Source: Acidobacteriota bacterium
GTDB lineage: Bacteria > Acidobacteriota > CAIWXX01
Length of the DNA stretch: 64,000 bases
Assembly: GCA_040755995.1 (NCBI GenBank)
Contig: JBFMAF010000024.1
Coordinates: 256,001-320,000, forward strand
Direction of reading: 5' to 3'
Position numbers and translations under genes: made by a program
Shown here: positions 33,803 to 64,000 of the stretch, one piece after another
How the letters are laid out: each line of letters opens with the position of its first letter
Numbering within the stretch: position 1 is the stretch's first letter
Notes under the pieces: model-generated
Databases searched by the model: none
The model's input: the letters and a program-made list of their open reading frames with translations, nothing else
What the model was told of the DNA's origin: nothing

Positions 33803-34174
33803 ATGCCGAAGATCCTGCTGGTCGAAGATAATGAGATGAACCGGGACATGCTCTCGCGGCGCTTGATGCGGAAGGGCTATGAGGTCGTCATGGCCGTCGA
33901 TGGAGCGCAGGGAGTCGCCATGGCGCAATCAGAACTGCCGTCGCTCATTCTCATGGACATGAGCCTGCCGGAAGTGGATGGGTGGGAGGCATCTCGGCGA
34001 CTGAAGGCCAAGGCCGAGACACAAGCTATCCCTATCATCGCGTTGACTGCGCACGCGATGTCCGGCGACCGGGAGAAGGCGCTCGAAGCCGGATGCGATG
34101 ACTACGACACCAAGCCGATCGAGATGCCGCGGTTGTTGGGCAAGATCGAGGCGCTGCTGAACCAGCGCGCGTAG
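33803..34174 (+). CDS. Single-domain response regulator (DivK-like)
   Basis: ILLVEDNEMNRDMLSRRL, LILMDMSLP, ALTAHAM, DTKP. Confidence 0.95.
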   Translation: MPKILLVEDNEMNRDMLSRRLMRKGYEVVMAVDGAQGVAMAQSELPSLILMDMSLPEVDGWEASRRLKAKAETQAIPIIALTAHAMSGDREKALEAGCDDYDTKPIEMPRLLGKIEALLNQRA

Positions 34175-34468
34175 TTTGCGGGACCGCTGATCGGGCTGTC
34201 GCGATCGACGTCGTAATCGATGCGACGCGGTCACGCCAACGAACCCGATCCCCGGGGTCGGCATCGGCATCTATTCGTTCGGTTCCTGCCAAAGTGTGGT
34301 CGTCGCGTGGGCCATCTCGATTCCGGCTCCGGAACGGAACCGATCCCGATGCCGATTCCGACACACGTGCCGATCCGCGGAGGGAGGCAGCGGCTCTTGA
34401 TGTCGGGCGAGTGCAGGAGTATTCTCTCCTCAGCCCGGAATTTCAGACTGGGCCTGAGGGAGGTGTCC

Positions 34469-35716
34469 GTGGCCGAGTCCAGTTCACGCGCGAAGCGTGC
34501 CCAGGCGCTGGCCCAGATTCGACGATCCGTCCGTGAATCCGGTCCGCGCCTCACGCAGCTCCTGGACCAGCTCGATGCCGCCAGGTTGGAGCTGCGCAGG
34601 GCCGCCCACTCGCTCGTCGGCAAGGCACCAATGGCGGGTCTGGAAATGGTCGGGAAGCTGGCGGCCGAACTGGAGGGCACGCTCGCTGCGCCGGAGCCGT
34701 GGGCCGGTATGCGGGACACGGCGGCACACCTCGTGGCTGCCGCCTCGGTCGTGAACGAAGAAGCCCCCGAAACGGGTGTCGCCGCAGAGCCGGGGGCGAT
34801 CAGCGATACGCCACCGAAGCCGCCCGAGGGAATCCTCGTGGCGATGGACGATGACGCGGATCTTCTGCAGCTCATCCAGGCGGCCTTTCAGGCATCAGGC
34901 TGGGAAGTGCGGACCGCCAGCACGGTCGCGCAATTGGACGCCGTGCTCGCGTCGAAGACCCCCAGTGGAATCATCCTCGACGTTGAGATGCCTGAAGTGA
35001 GCGGCTTCGATCTCTTCCTCCGCCTGCGCGAGAGGCCTGAATTGAAAGAGATCCCCGTGATGTTTCTCACATCGAGGGCGGATCCAAAGGATGTGATGGC
35101 TGGACTCGGCATGGGATCCGATGACTACCTGGTGAAGCCGATACAAATGGAGGAGCTGGTGGGCAGGGTCGTGAATCGCGTGGAGAATCTGGCCATGCTT
35201 CGCCGTCAGGCCCGGCGCGACATGTTGACCGGCCTCGCCAACCGGCGCGCCATGGAGGAAGAGCTGCTTGCCTTCTCGGCCAGACACCGGAGACATTCGG
35301 AGCCGATGGCGGTCGCCATGCTGGACATGGATCACTTCAAACGCATCAACGACACGTTCGGGCACGCGGTCGGCGATGTCGTACTGAAGGAGACGGCTCA
35401 CCGCCTGGCGACGGGGATGCGACAGTCGGACCTGTGCGGACGATGGGGCGGCGAGGAGTTCCTTGTGCTTTTTCCATACACGCCTCTCGAGCCGGCCGTG
35501 GAAGTGATCGATCGTCTCAGGCGCGACGTCGGCAGGGAACCAATGAAGGTGTCGGAGACACTGAACCTCACGGTAACGTTTTCGGCGGGGGTGGCTGCCG
35601 GGGTTCCCGGGGATGAGAATGCGCGGCAGCTGGTAGAGGCGGCCGACGTGGCATGTTACAGGGCGAAGCAACTCGGCCGGAATCGAGTGGTCTCGGCTGC
35701 AGACAGCCCCGAGTGA
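34469..35716 (+). CDS. Hpt-like + REC + GGDEF diguanylate cyclase
   Basis: AAHSLVG Hpt-like His; REC IILDVEMP; RWGGEEF active site with RQSD I-site; GGAGG SD and TTGATG-17-TATTCT promoter at 34397-34425. Confidence 0.9.
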   Translation: MAESSSRAKRAQALAQIRRSVRESGPRLTQLLDQLDAARLELRRAAHSLVGKAPMAGLEMVGKLAAELEGTLAAPEPWAGMRDTAAHLVAAASVVNEEAPETGVAAEPGAISDTPPKPPEGILVAMDDDADLLQLIQAAFQASGWEVRTASTVAQLDAVLASKTPSGIILDVEMPEVSGFDLFLRLRERPELKEIPVMFLTSRADPKDVMAGLGMGSDDYLVKPIQMEELVGRVVNRVENLAMLRRQARRDMLTGLANRRAMEEELLAFSARHRRHSEPMAVAMLDMDHFKRINDTFGHAVGDVVLKETAHRLATGMRQSDLCGRWGGEEFLVLFPYTPLEPAVEVIDRLRRDVGREPMKVSETLNLTVTFSAGVAAGVPGDENARQLVEAADVACYRAKQLGRNRVVSAADSPE

Positions 35717-35793
35717 CACCGAGATGGTGGGCGCGAGTCGAATCCGTAGAGCCGGCGTGCGCCGCGGCGCCGTCCTCTGATGGAGCTTGCGTC

Positions 35794-36186
35794 ATGAAGC
35801 TCCGAGTGCTCCTGGCAGACGACGATGCCGATCTGCGGTTTCTGACTGCCTGCACTTTGGAAGACGAAGGGTGGGAGGTGACAGGTGTTCCGAACGGAAG
35901 GGAGGCGATCGAGCGGCTTCGCCAGGGGGCATTCGATCTGGTCATCCTGGATGCCCAGATGCCCGTGATGGACGGATTCGAGGCTTACGAACTGATCAGG
36001 CAGGACGCGCTGTTCAGCGCGATCCCTATAATGTTCCTCACCGCTCAATCGACACTCGCGCAACTCGCCGAGCTAGGGGCCGGTCTGGCCGGTCACATCA
36101 AGAAGCCGTACGACGTCGATACGCTGGCTCGCCAGATCGAGGCGCTGCTCCAGAAGGCTCGACCCGGGCCTGACTCGCCCGGCTAG
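35794..36186 (+). CDS. Single-domain response regulator
   Basis: VLLADDD, LVILDAQMPVMDG, MFLTA, KKP. Confidence 0.9.
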   Translation: MKLRVLLADDDADLRFLTACTLEDEGWEVTGVPNGREAIERLRQGAFDLVILDAQMPVMDGFEAYELIRQDALFSAIPIMFLTAQSTLAQLAELGAGLAGHIKKPYDVDTLARQIEALLQKARPGPDSPG

Positions 36187-43277: not shown

Positions 43278-43395
43278 CACCCCTGGGGTATGAGTTCCTG
43301 CGACAAGACCATGTCACGGTCGGACGACTGCGGCGCAGTGAATGGACCGTGCCTGCATCGCATCCGTCGCGACGGACGGAAAGGAGGGTGATCCT

Positions 43396-44334
43396 TTGTC
43401 GATCACATTGTACTGGCTGCAGAACGGGGGCTGCGGAGGTGACACGCATTCGTTTCTCAACGTAGATCCTCTGGATGCAACGACACTACTGGAGCTGCTC
43501 GGGGTAGACGTCCTCTGGCATCCGGCGCTGTCCAACGGAAGCGCGAACGTGCATCAACGGATCCTCGACCAGCTGCTCTCCGGTCGACAGCCTCTTGATG
43601 TGCTGTGCCTGGAGGGCTCGATTCTGCGAGGACCCGGCGGCACCGGAATGTACGACCTGATGTTCGGGAAGCCCAAGAAAGATCTGCTGGCAGCGCTCGC
43701 GCAAAAGGCGCGCTTCGTGGTAGCAATCGGCACTTGCGCAAGCTTCGGCGGTGTGGGGGCCGAGCATGAGGTCGAGGCCGTGGGGATGCAGTTCCTCAGG
43801 ACAGCGAAGGGCGGGTTCATGGGCGAGGAGTTCAGGGCCGGCAGCGGGCTCCCCGTTATCAACCTGCCGGGATGTCCATGCCATCCCTCCGTGGTTGCGG
43901 GGGCCCTGTCCGCGTTGGTCGCGGGGACGCCGCTGGATCTCGATCAGTACCAGCGCCCTCTCGATTGGTACGGCATCATGGTCCACCAGGGCTGTACCCG
44001 CAACGAATACCACGAGTACAGAGTGGAGGAGGTGGAGTTCGGAGAGAAGGGGTGTTTGTTCTTCCACAGAGGCTGCCACGGGCCGCTCGCACAAGGCCCC
44101 TGCAACAAGCTTCTCTGGAACGGACATTCATCCAAGACCCGCGTCGGCGTGCCCTGCCAGGGGTGCACTCGACCGGATTTCCCGCAACGATACGCATTCT
44201 TCCAGACTCGCAATATCGAAGGCATACCGATCGAGCTTCCGGACGGAATCGGCCGCGCGCACTACCTGGCCTACAAAGGAATGGCCGCGGCGGCGGCACC
44301 GCAACGCTTACGTGACCGCACCACCAATATTTGA
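43396..44334 (+). CDS. hupU: Cytoplasmic sensory [NiFe]-hydrogenase small subunit (HupU/HoxB-like)
   Basis: WLQNGGCGGD, GTCASFGG, NLPGCPCHP, HQGCTRNEY, GCLF..GCHGP, PCQGC; no Tat signal; AAGGAGG SD before TTG 43396. Confidence 0.88.
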   Translation: MSITLYWLQNGGCGGDTHSFLNVDPLDATTLLELLGVDVLWHPALSNGSANVHQRILDQLLSGRQPLDVLCLEGSILRGPGGTGMYDLMFGKPKKDLLAALAQKARFVVAIGTCASFGGVGAEHEVEAVGMQFLRTAKGGFMGEEFRAGSGLPVINLPGCPCHPSVVAGALSALVAGTPLDLDQYQRPLDWYGIMVHQGCTRNEYHEYRVEEVEFGEKGCLFFHRGCHGPLAQGPCNKLLWNGHSSKTRVGVPCQGCTRPDFPQRYAFFQTRNIEGIPIELPDGIGRAHYLAYKGMAAAAAPQRLRDRTTNI

Positions 44335-44423
44335 GACGCGGAGACGCGGAGATGAAAAGATGATGCAGGAGTGCCGGCTGCGAGCTCGAACGCTGAGACG
44401 GATCCCAGAAAGGCTGAGTTGAC

Positions 44424-45974
44424 ATGTCCAAAGACATCCGGTTGCACGTTCCGCTGAATCGTGTGGAGGGAGATCTAGATATAAAGGTTGACCTCAGGGA
44501 CGGGAGGGTCGCGGACGCCTGGAGCTCGGGCACGATGTACCGAGGCTTCGAGAACATCCTGGTCGGACGAGCACCGCTGGATGGGCTGGTGATCTCGCCG
44601 CGCATCTGCGGCATCTGTACGACGGCGCACCTGACGGTGGCGGCTCGCGCCCTGGACAAGATCGCCGGCACGACAGTGCCGGACAACGCCAGGAGGCTCA
44701 GGAACGTTACGCTCATGGCAGAGCACATACAGAGTGACATCCGCCACGCGTTCCTTCTATTCGCCCCGGACTTCGCCAACCCTGCCCACGCCTCGCAGGC
44801 GCTTCACGCAGAAGCCGTGCGGCGCTACGAGCCATTCAAGGGGCGGGCCGCGATCGAGACGATCAAGGAGACCAAGCGCGTGATCGAGATCATCGGGATA
44901 CTCGGCGGCCAATGGCCTCACTCGTCGTTCATGGTCCCGGGAGGTGTGGTCGGCGTGCCGGCAACTTCGGATCTTCTCCAGTGCCGGCAGATCCTGGCGT
45001 TGTACCGGCAATGGTACGAGCAGCGGGTGCTGGGATGCCGAATCGAACGATGGCAGGCCGTGCATAACCTGGAGACGCTTGAGGCCTGGCTGGATGAATG
45101 CGATTCTCACCGGGCGAGCGAGCTCGGATTCTTTCTCCGATTCGGAAGAGCGGTCGGGCTGGACACGGTCGGCAGGGGCCACGGCAACTACGTCTGCTTC
45201 GGTTCTCTCGAGCTCCCCGAGGAAACGAGCGTGAGGCCCGGTGGAGGCCCGGCTGCGGGAAATCTGTTGCAACCGGCAGGTTTCGCTCGCGGGACTGTCG
45301 TCGAATCATTCGATCAGGCGAAGATTTCGGAGCACGTCGCTCACTCGTGGTTCCGCGACTACGGCGGAGGGCGCCACCCGTCGGCAGGGGAGACCAATCC
45401 GTATGCCACCGGCAGCGAGAGTCATCGCTACTCGTGGGCCAAGGCGCCTCGCTACGACGGCGCCCCGGCCGAAACCGGCCCGCTCGCCGAAATGATCATT
45501 GCAGGCCACCCCCTGATCAGCGACTGGGTGGGAAGGCTGGGCCCGAGCGCGCTCGTGAGGGAGCTGGCGCGCCTGATCAGACCGACAACCTTGATGCCCG
45601 CCATGGACACCTGGATCGCAGAGATGTTGTCGAGCGACGGAGAGTACTACCGGCGGCACGAGGAGATCGAACACGGCGAGGGATGCGGCCTGGGCGAGGC
45701 CGCCCGAGGCGCCCTGGGACACTGGGTCACCATCCGCGATGGGAAAATCGATCACTACCAGATCATCACCCCCACCGCCTGGAACGGATCGCCAAGGGAC
45801 TCGAACGGGATACGAGGTCCCTGGGAGGAGGCGCTGATCGGAACGCCGGTCCGCGATCCCGAGAACCCGGTGGAGCTCGGGCATGTGGTCCGCTCTTTCG
45901 ACCCCTGCCTGGTCTGCACAGTCCACACTGTCTCCTGCCGCAGAGACGCTGCGCAGCTGCTTGCGAGGATCTGA
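44424..45974 (+). CDS. hupV: Sensory [NiFe]-hydrogenase large subunit (HupV/HoxC-like, group 2b/2c)
   Basis: NRVEGDL, L1 PRICGICTTAH, GGQWPHS, L2 RSFDPCLVCTVH followed by a 15-aa tail. Confidence 0.92.
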   Translation: MSKDIRLHVPLNRVEGDLDIKVDLRDGRVADAWSSGTMYRGFENILVGRAPLDGLVISPRICGICTTAHLTVAARALDKIAGTTVPDNARRLRNVTLMAEHIQSDIRHAFLLFAPDFANPAHASQALHAEAVRRYEPFKGRAAIETIKETKRVIEIIGILGGQWPHSSFMVPGGVVGVPATSDLLQCRQILALYRQWYEQRVLGCRIERWQAVHNLETLEAWLDECDSHRASELGFFLRFGRAVGLDTVGRGHGNYVCFGSLELPEETSVRPGGGPAAGNLLQPAGFARGTVVESFDQAKISEHVAHSWFRDYGGGRHPSAGETNPYATGSESHRYSWAKAPRYDGAPAETGPLAEMIIAGHPLISDWVGRLGPSALVRELARLIRPTTLMPAMDTWIAEMLSSDGEYYRRHEEIEHGEGCGLGEAARGALGHWVTIRDGKIDHYQIITPTAWNGSPRDSNGIRGPWEEALIGTPVRDPENPVELGHVVRSFDPCLVCTVHTVSCRRDAAQLLARI

Positions 45975-46007
45975 TGGGCCCGGAGCGGAACGGGCGAGGG
46001 TAGCCAT

Positions 46008-48683
<2,676 letters not shown>

Positions 48684-48958
48684 GCGAGCGCGCATCGGAT
48701 CGTTGCCGTTGCCGTGGTCGTTTCCGTCGCCGTCGCCGTGGTGGTCGCCGTTCCGGTCGCCGTTGGTCTGATCGCTGGACTCAAGGTGTGAGATGGGCAT
48801 ACGTTGGCCTCCCACGCATACGCCCACGCCTATGCCTACGGCTACGGCGACGTCAACGGCAACGCACTCAGACAAGACCAGTCAACCCTGGCAGGAGTAG
48901 CGCCGTCTGCGTGCGAGGTTCCTAGATGGAGGTGATGCACCCTGACCCGGGCCCGCAT

Positions 48959-48987
48959 TTGAAACTGCGGCTGCCGGTGGCTATGAT
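48959..48987 (+). promoter_or_regulatory. Sigma70-type promoter TTGAAA-17-TATGAT
   Basis: Near-consensus boxes 18 nt before GTG 49006. Confidence 0.55.
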
Positions 48988-49005
48988 TGCGCAGAGGGGC
49001 CCCCG

Positions 49006-51381
49006 GTGAACCCGTTCTCGATCCTGGCTCTATTCGCGTTCATGGTCTCCGTGTATCTGGGGGTCCACGTCTTCAGGCTGGATTCCAAGTCGCGGGTGAA
49101 CCGCACATTCCTCGCCCTCTGCCTCAGCTTCGCCGCTTGGGCGTTCCCATATGCATTCGTTTACGCCGAGACGGACCGGGAGCTCATCTGGTTCTACTAC
49201 CGTCTCTCATCTCTGGGCTGGGTCACGCTCGCCAGCTTCGCTCTGCACTTCTTGCTTCTGCTCTCGAAGCACGAGAGGCTGTTCGCCAGGCCTTGGATCT
49301 ACGCGGTCATCTACCTGCCGCCGGTTCTTTTCCTCTACCGCGTGTGGTCCGGCGTTCTACTTGCCTCGGATTTCCACCAGGGCCCGATGGGAACCGTGGA
49401 AATCCACGGCAGCCAGACGCTCTGGTATCGTGCGTTCAGCATCTATTATCTTGCGTATCTATTGGCGGGCTTCGCGTGCGTATGGATGTATGGGCGGCGG
49501 AGCCGGATCGAGAAGGTGCGCAGGCAGGCTGGCATCGTGGCCTACTCGGGTTTGATCACAGTCGCCGTGTGCACCTTGACGAATGTCACCCTGCCCGCCC
49601 TCGGTATCCCGCTGGTACCCGCCATTGCGCCGGTGCTGCTCCTGATCTGGCTCTTCTCCATCTGGTATGCCATCGTCAAGTACAGCTTCCTGAGCATCTC
49701 ACTCGAAGTCGCCATCGATGAAATCGTCTCCAAGATCAAGGATATGGTGCTGCTGGTGAATCCGGAGGGGAGAATCGTCAAGGCGAATCGGCAGACAGAA
49801 GTCCTGCTCGGACACTCAGCGCAGGAGCTGGTGGGGGAGACGTTGGATATCCTGTTCCATCCGGGAGAGGGCCTGGACCACGGCCTACTGGATCTAGAGA
49901 AGGCCGCAGGTGCGGCCAGGTACAGCGAATGCGAATGCCGCGCCAGGTCCGGTGAGACAGTACCCATCGGCCTCTCCGTGGCCGCGGTCAGAGACGACAG
50001 CGACAACCACATAGGGGCCGTCGTGGTCGGCCAGGACCTGCGACCGACAAGGCAGTTGCAGCGCGAGATCGCAGACCGGAGAGCCGCGGAGGAGGCTGTC
50101 AAGCGGCAGAACGAGTACCTGAGCGCGCTGCACGAAACCACGCTCGGATTGATCAGCCGCTTGGACTTGACGGAGCTCTTGGAGGACGTGATACAAAGGG
50201 CGGGCACACTCATGGGGACCGGGCACGGGTTCATCTATCTGCTCGATCCCGGCGAAGACGAGATCAGGATGCACGTGGGCACCGGCCCTCTCGCCGCAGA
50301 GGTGGGCACACGGGTGAAGCGCGGCGAGGGGCTCGGCGGGCATGTCTGGGAGTCGGGCGAAGCGCTGGTCGTCGATGACTATAGATCCTGGCCGGGGCGA
50401 ATCCGTGGGTACGATCTGTCCGATCTCCGCTCCTCCATCGGCCTGCCGCTCAAGTCCGGCGATTCAGTGGTCGGCGTGATCGGCCTCGCGTACACGAGCG
50501 AGGAACGGAGATTTGGCCCGAACGAGATCGAGACCCTGGAACGGTTCGCCCGGCTGGCTTCGATCGCTATCGAAAACGCCCGGCTGTACGCGGCACTGCA
50601 ACGGGAATTGGCGGAGAGGCGGCTGGCGGAGGAGCGCGCTGAGGGGGCCAACCGCGCAAAGAGCACCTTCCTCGCCAACATGAGCCACGAGCTCCGTACG
50701 CCCCTGAATCACATCATCGGCTTCAGCGAGCTGCTTCAGGAGAACGCCCGGGAGAGCGGACACGACGGGGATCTTCCAGATCTTCAGATGATCCAGGCCG
50801 CGGGCAGACGGCTTCTCGATATCATCAACGACATACTCGACCTGTCCAAGATCGAGGCGGGAAGGATGCAGCTTGAGCTCGAACCCTTCGACGTGGCCGC
50901 GGCGGTACGGGACATCGTCGACGCAGTCCAGCCGCTGGCGGCCAGGAATTCCAACACACTCAAGGTGCGATGCGACGAGAACGCAGGCACCATGCTCGCC
51001 GATCCCGCCAAAGTGCGCCGCGCCCTGTTCAACATCCTGAGCAATGCCGCCAAGTTCACCGACCACGGCACCATCTCGCTCGACGTGCGGCGGCACGCCG
51101 TCGGCGGGACGGATTGTGTGGCCTTCGAGGTGCGGGACACAGGCGTCGGGATCGCTCCGGAGGCGATGGACCGGCTGTTCGTCCCGTTCACACAGGCGGA
51201 TTCGTCGGCCACGAGGAAATTCGGAGGAACAGGGCTCGGACTGGCCATATCCCGCCTCTTCTGCCGTATGATGGGCGGCGATATCGGAGTCGTCAGCCAG
51301 GTGGGCCGGGGATCGACTTTCACCATCCGCCTACCCGCCCGCGTTCCTGGGACGGTAGCCGGCACGGATGCGATAGAATAG
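49006..51381 (+). CDS. Membrane histidine kinase: 7TM (HisKA_7TM-like)-PAS-GAF-HisKA-HATPase
   Basis: About seven N-terminal TM helices ([14 protein letters not shown]...YAIVKY), [27 protein letters not shown]. Confidence 0.92.
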
Positions 51382-58907: not shown

Positions 58908-61649
58908 ATGAAGCAAATGGAAACGGGTCCATCACGCACTCCGATCTTCGTGTTCGATATCTGGGGATGCCGCGGCTCGCGCAATCTGGAGCCGGGGTCG
59001 TCGCGACTGGGCACGCGGACGCCCTGCTACTCCGTCCTCGGCAGGGAAGAGCTCCTCGTTTTCGACGCGGGCCGCGGACTCGCCGCGCTCGGCATCGCGA
59101 TGAAGCAGGGCGTCCGGTATCAGAACGTCTCGCATATTCACCTGCTAGTGAGCCACGCTCACATGGATCACTGGGAGGGGCTCAAGGATGTCGACTGGTT
59201 CTGGCTGAAGGACCGGCCCCTGGAAGTGACGCTCCATGGGCCGTCGGAAGCAGTCGAGGCCGCTCGCGCGGCATTCGCTCATCCGTCCTACGTTCCGCTG
59301 GAACAACTGGCCTCCGGCACCAACGTGCGCTTCGACGTGGATGCTCTGAAGGCCGGAGATGAGCGCGATCTCGGTTCGTTCCGCCTCAAGACGGCGGCTC
59401 TCAACCATTACAGCGGCAGCGGCCCCACCAAACGCATGCTGGACGCACTGGGATTCCGCGCTGAAGGGAAGGATGGGCCCGTCGTTTCCTATGTCTCGGA
59501 TCACGAGCCATCGCCCAGCCATGCCGCGGATGAGGCCCGGCTGGTGACGGGCGCCTCGCTCATCGTGCTCGACGCTCACTATGCGAACATCTCCGAGCAT
59601 TCATACGGACACGGGTCGATCGAGTACGCAGCGCGGATCGCGCGCTCGTATCCGGACACCCTGGTCATGGCCAGCCACATCGGCTCGCTTCTGAGCGACG
59701 AGTCCATCATCGAGTCGGTCCTCCGCCACGCCCAGGGCGTCGCCAATTTCCGGCTCTCGCGCGAGGGGGATTCGTATTTCTGGAACTGGCGGGAGCAGAA
59801 GTTCATCACGCACGGACAGCCCCCAGCCGTCTCCGTCGGATCAGACGGCACACCGAGGCGGCCTTTCCCGAAGGGCGGTCTCGCGACGCCGGAAGACCTC
59901 CATATCCTCAGGCACGAGCTGAAGACCCCGATCAATCAGATCATGGGCTATTCGGAGCTCATCGAGGAGGAGATGGAGGACAAGGGCGAATCATCGTACA
60001 CCGCCGACCTGCGGAAGATCCACAAGGCCTCCCAGCAGCTGCTATACCTGGTCGATCAGATCCAGCTGCCTGACTCGGCCCCCGGCGCGCCGCCGCCGGT
60101 TCCGCAGCATTCAACCGGACTGGAACAGGCGACAGCCGAGATCGGGACCGACGACGAAGCCGCTGTCGCTCTTCCGGCGGATTACGATCAGAATGGAGCA
60201 CCTGGCGAGCACGTGCTTGTGGTCGACGACAACGAGCTGAACCTTGACATGCTGTCGCGACGGCTGAAGGGGCGGGGCTACCGCGTCTCGGTTGCGAGCG
60301 ACGGGCAGCAGGCGTTCGAGAAGGTGAATGCGGACCGGTTCGACGCGATCCTCCTGGATATAATGATGCCCGGCATCAGCGGGCTTGACGTGCTGAAGGC
60401 GCTGCGCAAGACGTATACTCCGGCCGACCTGCCGGTCATCATGGCCACGGCGAGGGATCAGAGCGAGGACATCGTGGAGGCGCTGAAGCTCGGCGCAAAC
60501 GACTACGTCACCAAGCCGCTCGATTTTCCCGTCGTCGTGGCGCGCCTCCGAACCCACCTCTCGCTGAAGAAGGCCAGGGATCGTGTGAACCGCCTGGTGG
60601 AAGGGTTGGAGGTCAGGAATCGATTCATACGAAAAACGTTCGGGCGGTATCTGAGCGACGACGTGGTAGCGAGTCTGCTGGAGAGTCCGGAGGGGCTCAA
60701 GCTTGGCGGCGACCGCCGCGTTGTGACCATGCTCATGGCCGACCTCCGAGGCTTCACCTCGATGACGCATGGGATGAACCCCGAGCTGGTCATGAGAGTC
60801 CTCAACAACTACCTGGGGACCATGGCGCACGTCATCACCAAGCATCGAGGGACAATTGACGAGTTCCTCGGCGACGGCATTCTGGCGCTGTTCGGGGCGC
60901 CGATTCAGGCTGAGGACGACCCGCGGCGCGCCCTCGCATGTGCGCTCGAAATGCAGGTGGCGATCGAGGCGGTGAATGAACACAATGCGGCCGAGGGGCT
61001 GCCGTCGATCGACATGGGCGTCGCACTGAACACGGGCGAGGTCGTCGTTGGCAACATCGGATCAGAGACGCGGGCCAAGTACGGAGTGGTGGGTAGCCAG
61101 GTGAACCTGAGCGGGCGAATCGAGTCGTTCACAGTCGGCGGCCAGATTCTGATGACTGACGCCACACTGCAGGCGGCCGGCCGTGACGTGCACGTGGGGA
61201 AGGCGCTGGCGCTGAACGCGAAGGGCTTCAAGGAACCAGTGCGCGTCTACGAGCTCGTGGGACTCGGCGCGCCTTACAACATCTTCCTCCCGCAGCGGAA
61301 GGACGCGCCGGTCCAGCTCTCGCAGGAGATCCCCGTTCTTTGCTGGGTGCTGAGCGACAAGCTGATCGACACGGATGTATTCGAGGGGTTCATTACCGCA
61401 TTGTCGCCCAGGGGTGGTGAGATGCGGTCTCTGGCCAGCCTGGAGCCTATGACCAACCTCAAGCTCCGCTTTGCCGGTGATCGTGAGAAGGTGCTCGATT
61501 CCGATATCTACGTCAAGGTGACATGTGCCGACGAGACGGCCCACGAACGGCTGAGCTTCCGCTTTACTTCGGCGCGGCCCGATGTGCTCGAATATATCCG
61601 GCAGCTTCGCGAGAACAACGGCCGGTTGCCTGGGGAGCCAGCACGCTAA
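58908..61649 (+). CDS. Fusion: MBL-fold hydrolase + HisKA + REC + class III nucleotidyl cyclase (Cya2-type, probable guanylate cyclase) + PilZ-like tail
   Basis: WGCRGS and SHAHMDH (HxHxDH); RHELKTPINQIMGYSE; REC LLDIMMP; ADLRGFT, TIDEFLGDG, GNIGS..KYGVVGSQVNLSGRIES. Confidence 0.9.
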   Translation: MKQMETGPSRTPIFVFDIWGCRGSRNLEPGSSRLGTRTPCYSVLGREELLVFDAGRGLAALGIAMKQGVRYQNVSHIHLLVSHAHMDHWEGLKDVDWFWLKDRPLEVTLHGPSEAVEAARAAFAHPSYVPLEQLASGTNVRFDVDALKAGDERDLGSFRLKTAALNHYSGSGPTKRMLDALGFRAEGKDGPVVSYVSDHEPSPSHAADEARLVTGASLIVLDAHYANISEHSYGHGSIEYAARIARSYPDTLVMASHIGSLLSDESIIESVLRHAQGVANFRLSREGDSYFWNWREQKFITHGQPPAVSVGSDGTPRRPFPKGGLATPEDLHILRHELKTPINQIMGYSELIEEEMEDKGESSYTADLRKIHKASQQLLYLVDQIQLPDSAPGAPPPVPQHSTGLEQATAEIGTDDEAAVALPADYDQNGAPGEHVLVVDDNELNLDMLSRRLKGRGYRVSVASDGQQAFEKVNADRFDAILLDIMMPGISGLDVLKALRKTYTPADLPVIMATARDQSEDIVEALKLGANDYVTKPLDFPVVVARLRTHLSLKKARDRVNRLVEGLEVRNRFIRKTFGRYLSDDVVASLLESPEGLKLGGDRRVVTMLMADLRGFTSMTHGMNPELVMRVLNNYLGTMAHVITKHRGTIDEFLGDGILALFGAPIQAEDDPRRALACALEMQVAIEAVNEHNAAEGLPSIDMGVALNTGEVVVGNIGSETRAKYGVVGSQVNLSGRIESFTVGGQILMTDATLQAAGRDVHVGKALALNAKGFKEPVRVYELVGLGAPYNIFLPQRKDAPVQLSQEIPVLCWVLSDKLIDTDVFEGFITALSPRGGEMRSLASLEPMTNLKLRFAGDREKVLDSDIYVKVTCADETAHERLSFRFTSARPDVLEYIRQLRENNGRLPGEPAR

Positions 61650-61894
61650 CTCAGTTCATGCGACAGTTGGACGAAGCGGTCGACGGTCGTCGGCTCAGGT
61701 TCGCGGGTGCAGAGGCGATGCAGTCGGATTGCGGCCGTCTCGGACACCAGGCAATCGATTGGCGATCTGTGGTATCCTAGAGGCCGAGCTTCGAAACGAT
61801 CAAGTGAAGGAGTCACTCATTATCACGTCCGCGCTCCCGTGACGTGGGACATCCATCGGCCGATGAGATGAGATCGGCAGGGAGGAAGAAAGAC

Positions 61895-63973
61895 ATGGAA
61901 TCCGTGACACTCGACGATGCCCGGCGCAACGACGTGGTGGCGGCGCTCGGGAAATGCCCGCTCTTCCGCGCGCTCAAGGCTGAGCACTTCCCTCAGATTA
62001 TCAACATTGGTGAGCTCTACCAGTATGATCCGGAGGAGGTGATCATACGGCAGGGAGATCCCTCTGATTCGTTCTTCGTGATTGTGGATGGTGAGGTATC
62101 CGTGAGAGATGCCAAGCCCGACGGCGAGTACATAGAGCTCGGGCGAATGCCCGCGAAGAGCAGCGTCGGCGAGATCGGCCTGTTGTTGGATGAGCCTCGG
62201 ACTGCCACCGTGGTGGCCACTCAGCAGGCGGTGGTGTTGAAGTTCGGCGCGAAGGCCTTCCATGTCATGTTCCAGAAGATCCCGGATTTCGGCGTGGGGG
62301 TTAGCCGCGGGCTGGCCCACCGGCTGGAGCAGGTATCGGGCCGTCGCGTAGCGCTGCCCGAGTACGACACGACGAAGCCGAGGCCCCCGGTCGACGTGCT
62401 CAGCCTGCTCCCCAGGGAGCTGTGCCAGCGCCATCGCATCCTCCCGCTGCAGGTCGATGGGAGTATCGTCACGATGGGGTTCGTGGATGAGCCCAGCACG
62501 CAGGTGATGACCGCCGTTCGCGACCAGCTCGCCAGCATGGACATCAGACCCATGCACATCAACCTCGAGTTCTACAACAAGATCATGCAGAGCTACGTCG
62601 GGCTGGAAGGCTGGGGAGCGCCAGCCGAGGCTGCCCCCGAGGCGCCCCCAGCTGCACGACCTCAATCCAAGTCGCCTCGGCTGGATGGTCTGTTGGAGAG
62701 GGTGGTGGCGGAAGGCGCATCGGATTTGCACGTGTCCGCCGGCCACAAGCCTCACTGGCGCATAGAAGGCGACATGCAGACGATCGTGGACCTACCGGTG
62801 CTTGGCGAGAACGAGGTCTTCGAGCTGCTCCAGCCGGTAATGGAACACAGGCATCTGGACGAGTTCGCGGAGAGAATGGACGCGGACTTCGCCTACGCGG
62901 TGCCCGGCCTCGCCCGTTTCCGCGTCAACATGTACAAGGACAACCACGGGGTCGGTGCGGCTTTCCGTCTGATTCCGTCCAAGGTTCTCACACTCGATCA
63001 GCTCGGCCTCCCCGCAGTCCTCAAGAACTTCTGCGAGGTTCCCAAGGGGCTGATCCTGGTGACGGGTCCGACCGGCTGCGGGAAGTCCACAACCCTGGCC
63101 GCGATGATAGACCACATCATCAAGACGCGCAAGGCACACATCGTGACGCTGGAGGACCCGATCGAGTTCGTTCATCAGAGCGATGCCTGCCTGATCAACC
63201 AGCGCGAGATCGGGGGTCAGGTGCAGAGCTTCGGCAGAGGCTTGCGCGCCGCGCTGCGCGAGGACCCGGACATAGTTCTACTGGGCGAGATGCGGGATGC
63301 AGAGACGATCGCATTGGCGCTCGAGACCGCCAACACGGGCCACCTTGTGCTGGCCACGTTGCACACAAACACAGCCATCACGGCGCTCGACCGGATCATC
63401 GACTCGTTCCCCGGCGACCAGCAACCCCAGATTCAGAGCACGCTCGGGGATGTGTTGAGAGGCGTCGTCGCGCAGATGCTCGTCAAGAAGATCGGCGGAG
63501 GCCGCATGGCCGTGTGCGAGGTCATGGTCGTGAACTACGCCATACAGAACCTCGTCCGCGAGAAGAAGACTCAACAGATCCCCAGCGTCATGCAGACGGC
63601 CAGGGGCATAGGGATGGCACTGCTCAACGACGAGCTTGCGAAGCTGGTGGAGGATCGGAAGATCGAGATGCAGGAGGCCATGAGCAAGGCCATCGACAAG
63701 GACGATCTCAACCGGCGCTTCCGGAGCGGCCTGACGCTCGCCGAGGACCCACCCACCTTCGAGCGGGTCCGGATCATCGCTGTGAGGCCGTCGACTCCGG
63801 CCTCCGAGGCCGGGCTGCATCGCGGAGACTACATCGTGGAATTCGCCGGGAAGCCGACCAAGGAGTACACGGTGGACGAGATTCGAGCCGCCTTCCGCAT
63901 CGATATGCAGCACCAGCTCGGCATCCAGAGGGGTGACAAGCGCCTCAAGATTGTCATGGACATGCGCAAGTAA
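61895..63973 (+). CDS. pilT: PilT-family pilus retraction ATPase with N-terminal cNMP-binding and GspE/PilB-type N-domain and C-terminal PDZ
   Basis: cNMP IIRQGD...GEIGLL..PRTATV; LLPRELCQRHRILPL; ASDLH, GPTGCGKSTT, TLEDPIE, LREDPD...GEMRD, TGHLVLATLHT, AIQNLVRE; PDZ VRPSTPASEAGLHRGDYI; GGAGG SD. Confidence 0.92.
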   Translation: MESVTLDDARRNDVVAALGKCPLFRALKAEHFPQIINIGELYQYDPEEVIIRQGDPSDSFFVIVDGEVSVRDAKPDGEYIELGRMPAKSSVGEIGLLLDEPRTATVVATQQAVVLKFGAKAFHVMFQKIPDFGVGVSRGLAHRLEQVSGRRVALPEYDTTKPRPPVDVLSLLPRELCQRHRILPLQVDGSIVTMGFVDEPSTQVMTAVRDQLASMDIRPMHINLEFYNKIMQSYVGLEGWGAPAEAAPEAPPAARPQSKSPRLDGLLERVVAEGASDLHVSAGHKPHWRIEGDMQTIVDLPVLGENEVFELLQPVMEHRHLDEFAERMDADFAYAVPGLARFRVNMYKDNHGVGAAFRLIPSKVLTLDQLGLPAVLKNFCEVPKGLILVTGPTGCGKSTTLAAMIDHIIKTRKAHIVTLEDPIEFVHQSDACLINQREIGGQVQSFGRGLRAALREDPDIVLLGEMRDAETIALALETANTGHLVLATLHTNTAITALDRIIDSFPGDQQPQIQSTLGDVLRGVVAQMLVKKIGGGRMAVCEVMVVNYAIQNLVREKKTQQIPSVMQTARGIGMALLNDELAKLVEDRKIEMQEAMSKAIDKDDLNRRFRSGLTLAEDPPTFERVRIIAVRPSTPASEAGLHRGDYIVEFAGKPTKEYTVDEIRAAFRIDMQHQLGIQRGDKRLKIVMDMRK

Positions 63974-64000
63974 CTGCTGCGGGCGGCAGGCGAGACGGGG

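Follow-up and report, generated by a model that had tools for sequence, protein, structure and literature searches.

Organization of the locus

The stretch analyzed here, called the window throughout, comprises 64,000 nucleotides of an Acidobacteriota bacterium (assembly GCA_040755995.1, contig JBFMAF010000024.1, positions 256,001 to 320,000, forward strand). Near its end lie a gene for a metallo-beta-lactamase (MBL)-fold hydrolase fused to a class III cyclase (gene 1) and a gene for a PilT-family ATPase bearing a cyclic-nucleotide-binding domain (CNB; gene 2). An earlier sequence-only reading had described two co-oriented genes 245 bp apart, and the gene coordinates bear this out (gap at 61650-61894). 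Its domain content, namely MBL, receiver (REC), and class III cyclase in gene 1 and a cyclic nucleoside monophosphate (cNMP) domain with PilT in gene 2, was confirmed by Pfam matches above the curated cut-offs, which were applied to both genes. It had overlooked the dimerization and histidine phosphotransfer (DHp) domain, the MshEN_C/N1D domain, the predicted C-terminal beta-barrel of the cyclase, and a third, co-oriented CNB gene (CNB3), which begins 34 bp past gene 2 and 8 bases outside the window.

58908..61649, + strand: gene 1 (P0001), 913 aa; MBL hydrolase, DHp, receiver, Cya2-type class III cyclase, PilZ-like barrel
61895..63973, + strand: gene 2 (P0002), 692 aa; CNB, N1D/MshEN_C, PilT ATPase, PDZ
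63974..64000, + strand: spacer between gene 2 and gene 3, reaching the window end
G000:C24:320008-320664 (L001:10008-10664), + strand: gene 3 (CNB3, P0122), 218 aa; CNB and helical tail, pocket GE...RTA

A consensus scan of the 245-bp gap detected no terminator-like or promoter-like site, and regional counts were those expected by chance. GC content is 0.61-0.63 across the three genes (0.80-0.83 at third codon positions), as in adjacent genes, and thus gives no compositional hint of recent transfer. In the CNB3 family (L001:10008-10664; L360-L389) the phosphate cassette of the CNB is longer than usual, and the tail matches no known family.

A Cya2-type cyclase fused to an MBL-fold hydrolase

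Gene 1 matched four Pfam families: Lactamase_B_2 (residues 51-258), HisKA (333-385), Response_reg (436-547), and Guanylate_cyc (606-773).

58935..59807, + strand: MBL-fold domain of the RNase Z / atypical class II phosphodiesterase clade, predicted cNMP phosphodiesterase
59883..60062, + strand: HisKA-type DHp hairpin with H336, without an ATP-binding domain (Pfam and model)
60210..60563, + strand: receiver domain with acidic pocket, D484, T514, and K536 (Pfam and residue check)
60615..61292, + strand: FGRY transducer element and cyclase core (D612, D656, N733, R737; E652 and G726 as in Cya2)
61305..61616, + strand: C-terminal beta-barrel and helix, PilZ-like, no RxxxR (structure model)

The cyclase core retains D612 and D656, which we take to be the metal aspartates, and N733 and R737, presumably the transition-state residues. 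Its closest natural relative of solved structure is Synechocystis Cya2 (sequence E 8e-73), and the model superimposes on 2W01 with a Z score of 32 and a root-mean-square deviation of 1.5 A over 199 residues at 57% identity. The two proteins also share the FGRY element and a C-terminal extension. E652 aligns with Cya2 E488, the Glu of 2W01, in the place of which the adenylate variant 6FHT carries Lys. According to PMC5995499, wild-type Cya2 fusions are GTP-specific and the E488K exchange yields an adenylate cyclase. The specificity-site Glu is present in 41/41 listed close cyclase sequences, gene 1 itself occurring twice in that list, and in all eight other MBL-cyclase fusions. The earlier interpretation of this Glu as a guanylate sign is therefore supported by its equivalence to E488 within a 57% identical core, and the cyclase is strongly predicted to turn GTP into cGMP. 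In input the proteins differ: Cya2 has a CHASE2 membrane sensor, whereas the gene 1 protein is soluble, takes its input through DHp and receiver, and carries the MBL domain as a fusion.

The receiver is canonical, with D484, T514, and K536 presumably in their usual functional roles. The DHp contains H336, whereas Pfam and the model agree that gene 1 has no HATPase domain; a complete histidine kinase is thereby ruled out, and the DHp cannot act as a kinase alone. It may serve phosphotransfer or dimerization instead. The PilZ-like character of the C-terminal barrel is based on the model of gene 1 and on 40% identity to a paralogue, which matches PF07238 with an E value of 0.003, under the cut-off; PF07238 also matches P0133. 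RxxxR is the switch motif of PilZ domains that bind cyclic di-GMP (c-di-GMP), and none was found in gene 1 residues 788-830.

The same MBL-DHp-REC-cyclase architecture recurs in 8 other 90%-identity clusters among 15 matches. Four proteins of about 560 aa (P0124-P0127) have an MBL-DHp-REC arrangement that stops ahead of the cyclase, and their receiver looks degenerate. Besides gene 1, the genome encodes one other Glu-type cyclase and three of the Lys type. The other Glu-type, Cya2-like enzyme is a REC-GGDEF-REC-cyclase chain located right behind a large hybrid kinase gene (L009:10052-12898; G000:C9:15052-17898), and its domains suggest that a single protein could make both c-di-GMP and cGMP.

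The MBL domain contains S82-HxHxDH-88, H167, D222, and H235. The [S/T]HxHxDH motif is found in 21/21 family sequences, and the downstream His and Asp are invariant in a 20-row alignment. Atypical class II phosphodiesterases are defined by PF12706 together with [T/S]HxHxDH, and one of them, Rv1339, hydrolyzes cAMP and cGMP (PMC9293780); YhfI likewise prefers cAMP/cGMP (PMC9117128). The domain shares family, motif, and fold with Rv1339, YhfI, Corynebacterium glutamicum CpdA, and Apyc1 (PMC9293780, PMC9117128), and its look-alike clusters include Apyc1-type cNMP nucleases. It differs from these enzymes in its fusion to or clustering with a cyclase, in having a substrate that is predicted, in a structural-alignment identity of only about 15%, and in matching RNase Z equally well. 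Two results speak against a firm assignment: the model fits ZipD/RNase Z (Z 26.7) at least as well as YhfI (24.6), with the PhnP family at 23.7, and all NCBIfam matches fall far below cut-off. The fold therefore leaves the substrate unfixed. Sequence searches of the PDB were uninformative, and profile searches returned an arylsulfatase (7.5e-8) and yeast PDE1 at an E value of only 0.36.

Gene context informs the substrate more than the fold does. Of the 20 MBL-positive genomes of the class sample described below, 8 have the MBL fused to the cyclase or encoded next to it, and in 5 more the two genes lie at most about 13 kb apart. The fused domain is thus a candidate cNMP phosphodiesterase that may degrade cGMP, and the earlier suggestion of a putative phosphodiesterase gains support from the metal motif of the atypical class II enzymes.

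A chimeric PilT with a cyclic-nucleotide-binding domain

Pfam assigned cNMP_binding (residues 43-127), MshEN (160-219), T2SSE (263-588), and PDZ_6/PDZ_2 (618-686) to gene 2.

61916..62344, + strand: cyclic-nucleotide-binding domain with intact G92-E93...R102-T103
62357..62602, + strand: PilB/GspE-type N1D (MshEN_C subdomain only, no c-di-GMP motif)
62672..63715, + strand: PilT core with Walker A, Asp box, Walker B, His box, and AIRNLIRE-like motif
63722..63964, + strand: PDZ domain

The AIRNLIRE-like motif is a mark of PilT. Gene 2 scored 438.8 bits against TIGR01420 (PilT/PilU; cut-off 319.1), and its model (pLDDT 85) best matched the retraction ATPases Geobacter PilT4 (6OJX) and Pseudomonas aeruginosa PilT (3JVV), with a TM-score of about 0.9 to solved chains. 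The core is 48% identical to P. aeruginosa PilT versus 36% to PilU. When 8000 proteins were scored, the top 120, which serve here as the close set, were gene 2 and 119 full-length homologues (55-65% identity); every one has cNMP and T2SSE domains, and those with named records come from Vicinamibacteria. These 120 proteins keep the AIRNLIRE-like motif along with all catalytic ones. In a quick tree, CNB-bearing cores grouped together (support 90), with the PDZ forms as a subgroup among them (95), separate from PilB/GspE.

The MshEN/N1D match is above its threshold (29-33 bits; cut-off 23.1). PMC11656802 treats N1D as characteristic of extension ATPases, and the presence of this domain makes gene 2 a variant or chimera, not a canonical PilT. 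A c-di-GMP site was considered for this match and rejected, as the tandem RLGxxL motif of MshEN_N (defined in PMC5013675) is present in 0/120 homologues. Instead, the domain matches place the CNB where MshEN_N would stand in front of N1D. Compared with 3JVV and 6OJX, gene 2 thus has an additional CNB, a PilB-type N1D, and a PDZ domain.

The family extends beyond the close set. A deeper search yielded 150 representatives, 62 of which cover CNB and N1D and form the distant set; 49 of the 62 run on into a PilT core, the rest being fragments or apparent frameshifts. PDZ-less CNB-PilT forms occur in records of Myxococcota, Kiritimatiellae, and Thermoanaerobaculia. Within the phylum, a sample of 401 genomes gave only 4 matches, own genome included, and two same-family genomes had no match to the CNB-N1D query. 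Those two encode a PilT with an apparently duplicated N-terminal PilT domain (L390:7496-9340 and L391:6836-8332), 54-56% identical to the gene 2 core; that form is not in the genome studied here. In a Myxococcales record, a GAF-MshEN-PilB/GspE-type ATPase gene lies upstream of a PDZ-less CNB-PilT gene (L025:6174-8747).

A candidate cGMP pathway with PilT as a predicted receptor

We consider the chances about even that this locus is part of a cGMP pathway in which the accessory PilT is one predicted direct receptor. Two further genes of the window are candidates for its input.

46008..48683, + strand: hybrid kinase PAS-GAF-HisKA-HATPase-REC-REC, predicted upstream input
33803..34174, + strand: single-domain receiver, predicted relay member

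The kinase is the best match in the genome (56% over 525 aa) to the kinase of cyclase clusters elsewhere, and the receiver shares 74% identity with its counterpart at other cyclase loci. In the proposed sequence of events, the kinase would pass phosphate via the single receiver, the DHp of the cyclase, or both, to the cyclase receiver. The cyclase very probably then makes cGMP from GTP, which the fused MBL domain may hydrolyze so that the signal is a short pulse. The cGMP would be bound by the N-terminal CNB of PilT and also by CNB3 and other readers. Least certain is the output: binding might shift the adjoining N1D and let the PilT hexamer dock on the platform of the type IVa pilus encoded on contig C28, giving extra retraction in competition with PilB. 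Allosteric gating of pilus retraction is an inference. Several findings weigh against this pathway as proposed, and they are set out below with the alternatives on which they bear.

Ligand of the pocket

The G-E...R pocket is intact in 119/120 close and 54/62 distant homologues, and gene 2 conforms to the E(X)nR[S/T] phosphate-binding signature (E93...R102-T103). Column conservation is 0.69 in the CNB versus 0.80 in the ATPase. The sequence-only reading had taken the RTA motif (R102-T103-A104) to lean to cGMP, which did not hold up: in PMC10187061 the CRP signature is RS or RT in all studied cAMP and cGMP binders, RT being found in both CgrA and Rv3676, and the 62 distant members include 27 with RT and 22 with RS. 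RTA was therefore rejected as a cGMP marker. PKA and PKG domains match the CNB of gene 2 alike. The case for cGMP as the ligand comes solely from the cyclase and the gene context.

PilT could instead be a direct receptor for cAMP, or for both nucleotides, with the cyclase serving other CNB proteins or a shared cNMP pool. The three Lys-type cyclases of the genome make cAMP a possible ligand; the cAMP binder Rv3676 has RT, and Clr is reported to bind both nucleotides. A Cya2-type cyclase was found in 8/9 genomes with PDZ-type PilT, whereas among genomes with PDZ-less PilT a Glu-type enzyme was found in 2/9 and not in 7/9. Four of these seven have an intact pocket, and their best cyclase matches carry Lys; the other three have lost the Arg. 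Against this alternative, RT is kept in 115/120 members of the PDZ-type clade. All four cases of cyclase-PilT adjacency involve a Cya2-type enzyme (Glu in own locus, L026, and L103; the 3' fragment in L120 is assigned by similarity), and where loci were screened with no identity filter, PilT never had a Lys-type cyclase as neighbor. We regard a cAMP or dual-ligand receptor as unlikely.

Output of the motor

The sequence-only reading had made the receptor the motor itself. This was not borne out, given that gene 2 is one of five PilT-family genes in the genome and the canonical pilT belongs to a pilB-pilT-pilC cluster on C28, followed by a kinase and regulator pair (pilC and this pair were named from sequence starts). 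Gene 2 is an accessory PilT outside the pil cluster, and no pil gene was recognized in the fetched flanks of the gene 1-gene 2 locus. The product of the canonical pilB (G000:C28:184198-185928) starts with a KLG-type tandem MshEN_N motif and probably binds c-di-GMP.

These positions would suit an alternative in which cGMP does bind PilT but the output is not the rate of pilus retraction: N1D and PDZ would direct where PilT goes or what it binds, or the paralogue would act in signaling or in a different filament or secretion machine. PDZ is a peptide-docking domain, and N1D points to extension ATPases; in one of these, PilB2, c-di-GMP binding left ATP hydrolysis unaltered (PMC11656802). Such an output is harder to reconcile with the catalytic and AIRNLIRE-like motifs kept across the 120 homologues and with a core that groups with PilT rather than PilB/GspE and is closer to P. 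aeruginosa PilT than to PilU. It appears rather improbable to us.

Gene neighborhood and co-occurrence

To assess linkage, 69 PilT-family loci were reduced to 28 lineages at 70% identity, with a neighbor defined as lying within 1.5 kb; loci without a full CNB-N1D-PilT (L028, L029, L132, L133, L146, and the CNB-only L030-L093 and L134-L173) were excluded. A pathway gene adjoins PilT in 8/28 lineages, in differing orientations. The cyclase is the neighbor in four: own locus, L026 (divergent), the L103 group (convergent), and L120 (a 3' fragment upstream). Adjacency of cyclase and PilT, for which a neighborhood check had been proposed earlier, is thus found in three other lineages. CNB3 adjoins PilT in two lineages (own and L015, own locus being counted under two types), a TPR-CNB gene in two (the L017 group and L022), and the partner kinase alone in one (L094). 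TPR-CNB genes (L017:12192-13229, L022:8741-9766) adjoin PilT, cyclase, or MBL depending on the genome. Flanks were too short to tell in 9/28 lineages. Another 11, among them the largest soil clade, have no pathway neighbor even though each side of PilT offers 2.5 kb of flank or more. Without own locus, the cyclase is adjacent in 3/18 informative lineages, set against a rough chance rate of 0.1% per lineage that takes no account of the general clustering of signaling genes.

A conserved make/break/sense operon was rejected, since MBL adjoins PilT only in own lineage and all three parts lie together likewise in 1/28. The dedicated three-part module of the sequence-only reading is not supported either, as the cyclase also occurs in 32 of the 182 genomes without a PilT match in a class sample (201 genomes of Vicinamibacteria, the class of G407). 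This sample contains PilT in 19 genomes, cyclase in 47, MBL in 20, and CNB3 in 22. The cyclase was found in 15/19 PilT genomes, and MBL in 12/19 PilT genomes versus 8/182 others; 18 of the 22 CNB3 genomes have a cyclase. In L306 the order is CNB3, cyclase, receiver, kinase, transporter-HEAT-CNB, and MBL, with no PilT in the cluster, and CNB3, TPR-CNB, and receiver are grouped in several other loci away from PilT. The cyclase adjoins other CNB proteins too and appears to supply cGMP to several readers in common, this PilT being one; own gene order is one of several shuffles of the pathway parts, with no fixed operon.

The adjacency might also be incidental, reflecting signaling genes that cluster in these genomes and a CNB that works independently of the cyclase. 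The 11 of 19 informative lineages without a pathway neighbor and the variable orientation would fit this explanation. Linkage is labile, as indicated by L101, whose cyclase is a 5'-truncated remnant, and by L025, where the cyclase is missing beside a PilT that shares 90% identity or more with the one in L026. Co-occurrence also tracks kinship: in a quick RecA tree (49 rows with 5 negative class genomes, a biased sample), positives separated from negatives, so co-occurrence tests overstate the association. What argues against mere chance is that the same few orthologues recur (cyclase 60%, receiver 67-76%, kinase 57-64%, CNB3 40% identity) and that they also cluster together away from PilT. We judge an incidental arrangement very unlikely.

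Relation to known systems

Every domain of the locus comes from a known family, and control of a pilus motor by an attached sensor is already known for c-di-GMP with PilB/MshE. Like MshE and PilB (PMC5013675, PMC11656802), gene 2 has an N-terminal second-messenger sensor beside MshEN_C/N1D on a pilus ATPase; it differs in having a CNB for MshEN_N, a predicted mononucleotide ligand, a retraction-type motor, and no RLG motif in 120/120 homologues. The gcy-cgrA genes of Rhodospirillum centenum (PMC10187061) resemble the locus in clustering guanylate cyclase genes with a CNB-domain receptor. CgrA is a CRP transcription factor, whereas no DNA-binding domain was detected in the receptors of own locus, one of which is a motor ATPase. 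The P. aeruginosa Pil-Chp/CyaB/Vfr system similarly ties a phosphorelay-controlled class III cyclase to type IV pili, except that there cAMP works via transcription and not through motor binding.

Searches of the open literature, which leave subscription journals and supplements aside, listed no paper that deals with a cNMP-binding PilT or a cyclase-PilT link. Known bacterial cGMP receptors are few, and PMC10187061 describes the receptor for Cya2-made cGMP as still awaiting discovery in 2023. The direct second-messenger control of pilus motors that was found described concerns extension ATPases and c-di-GMP (PMC11656802); through a conserved cNMP pocket on PilT, such control would reach a retraction-type motor and a mononucleotide as well. 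If cGMP binds gene 2, a rare bacterial messenger would act directly on a pilus motor. The locus also supplies a candidate cGMP phosphodiesterase, and all parts are soluble, individually expressible proteins.

A wider reading, which is possible but which we hold to be doubtful, is that Vicinamibacteria and this bacterium have an undescribed cGMP network in which the kinase relay, the cyclase, and a dedicated MBL phosphodiesterase are joined by four or more types of CNB receptor. The CNB of the chimeric PilT would then replace the c-di-GMP sensor of PilB, with cGMP directly switching on retraction and c-di-GMP acting on extension via the MshEN-PilB of C28.

Additional observations

A 1069-aa TLC/MFS transporter-HEAT-CNB protein (L306:11113-14322; also in L303, L305, L307, L312, L313, and L316) is encoded directly upstream of the MBL gene in several genomes of the class and is a possible nucleotide transporter or further pathway receptor. 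Within the window, the single receiver gene is followed by an Hpt-REC-GGDEF gene and then by another receiver gene (33803-36186); these genes possibly form a c-di-GMP branch of the same relay. At 43342-51381, genes for the small and large subunits of a NiFe hydrogenase lead straight into two GAF/PAS kinase genes.

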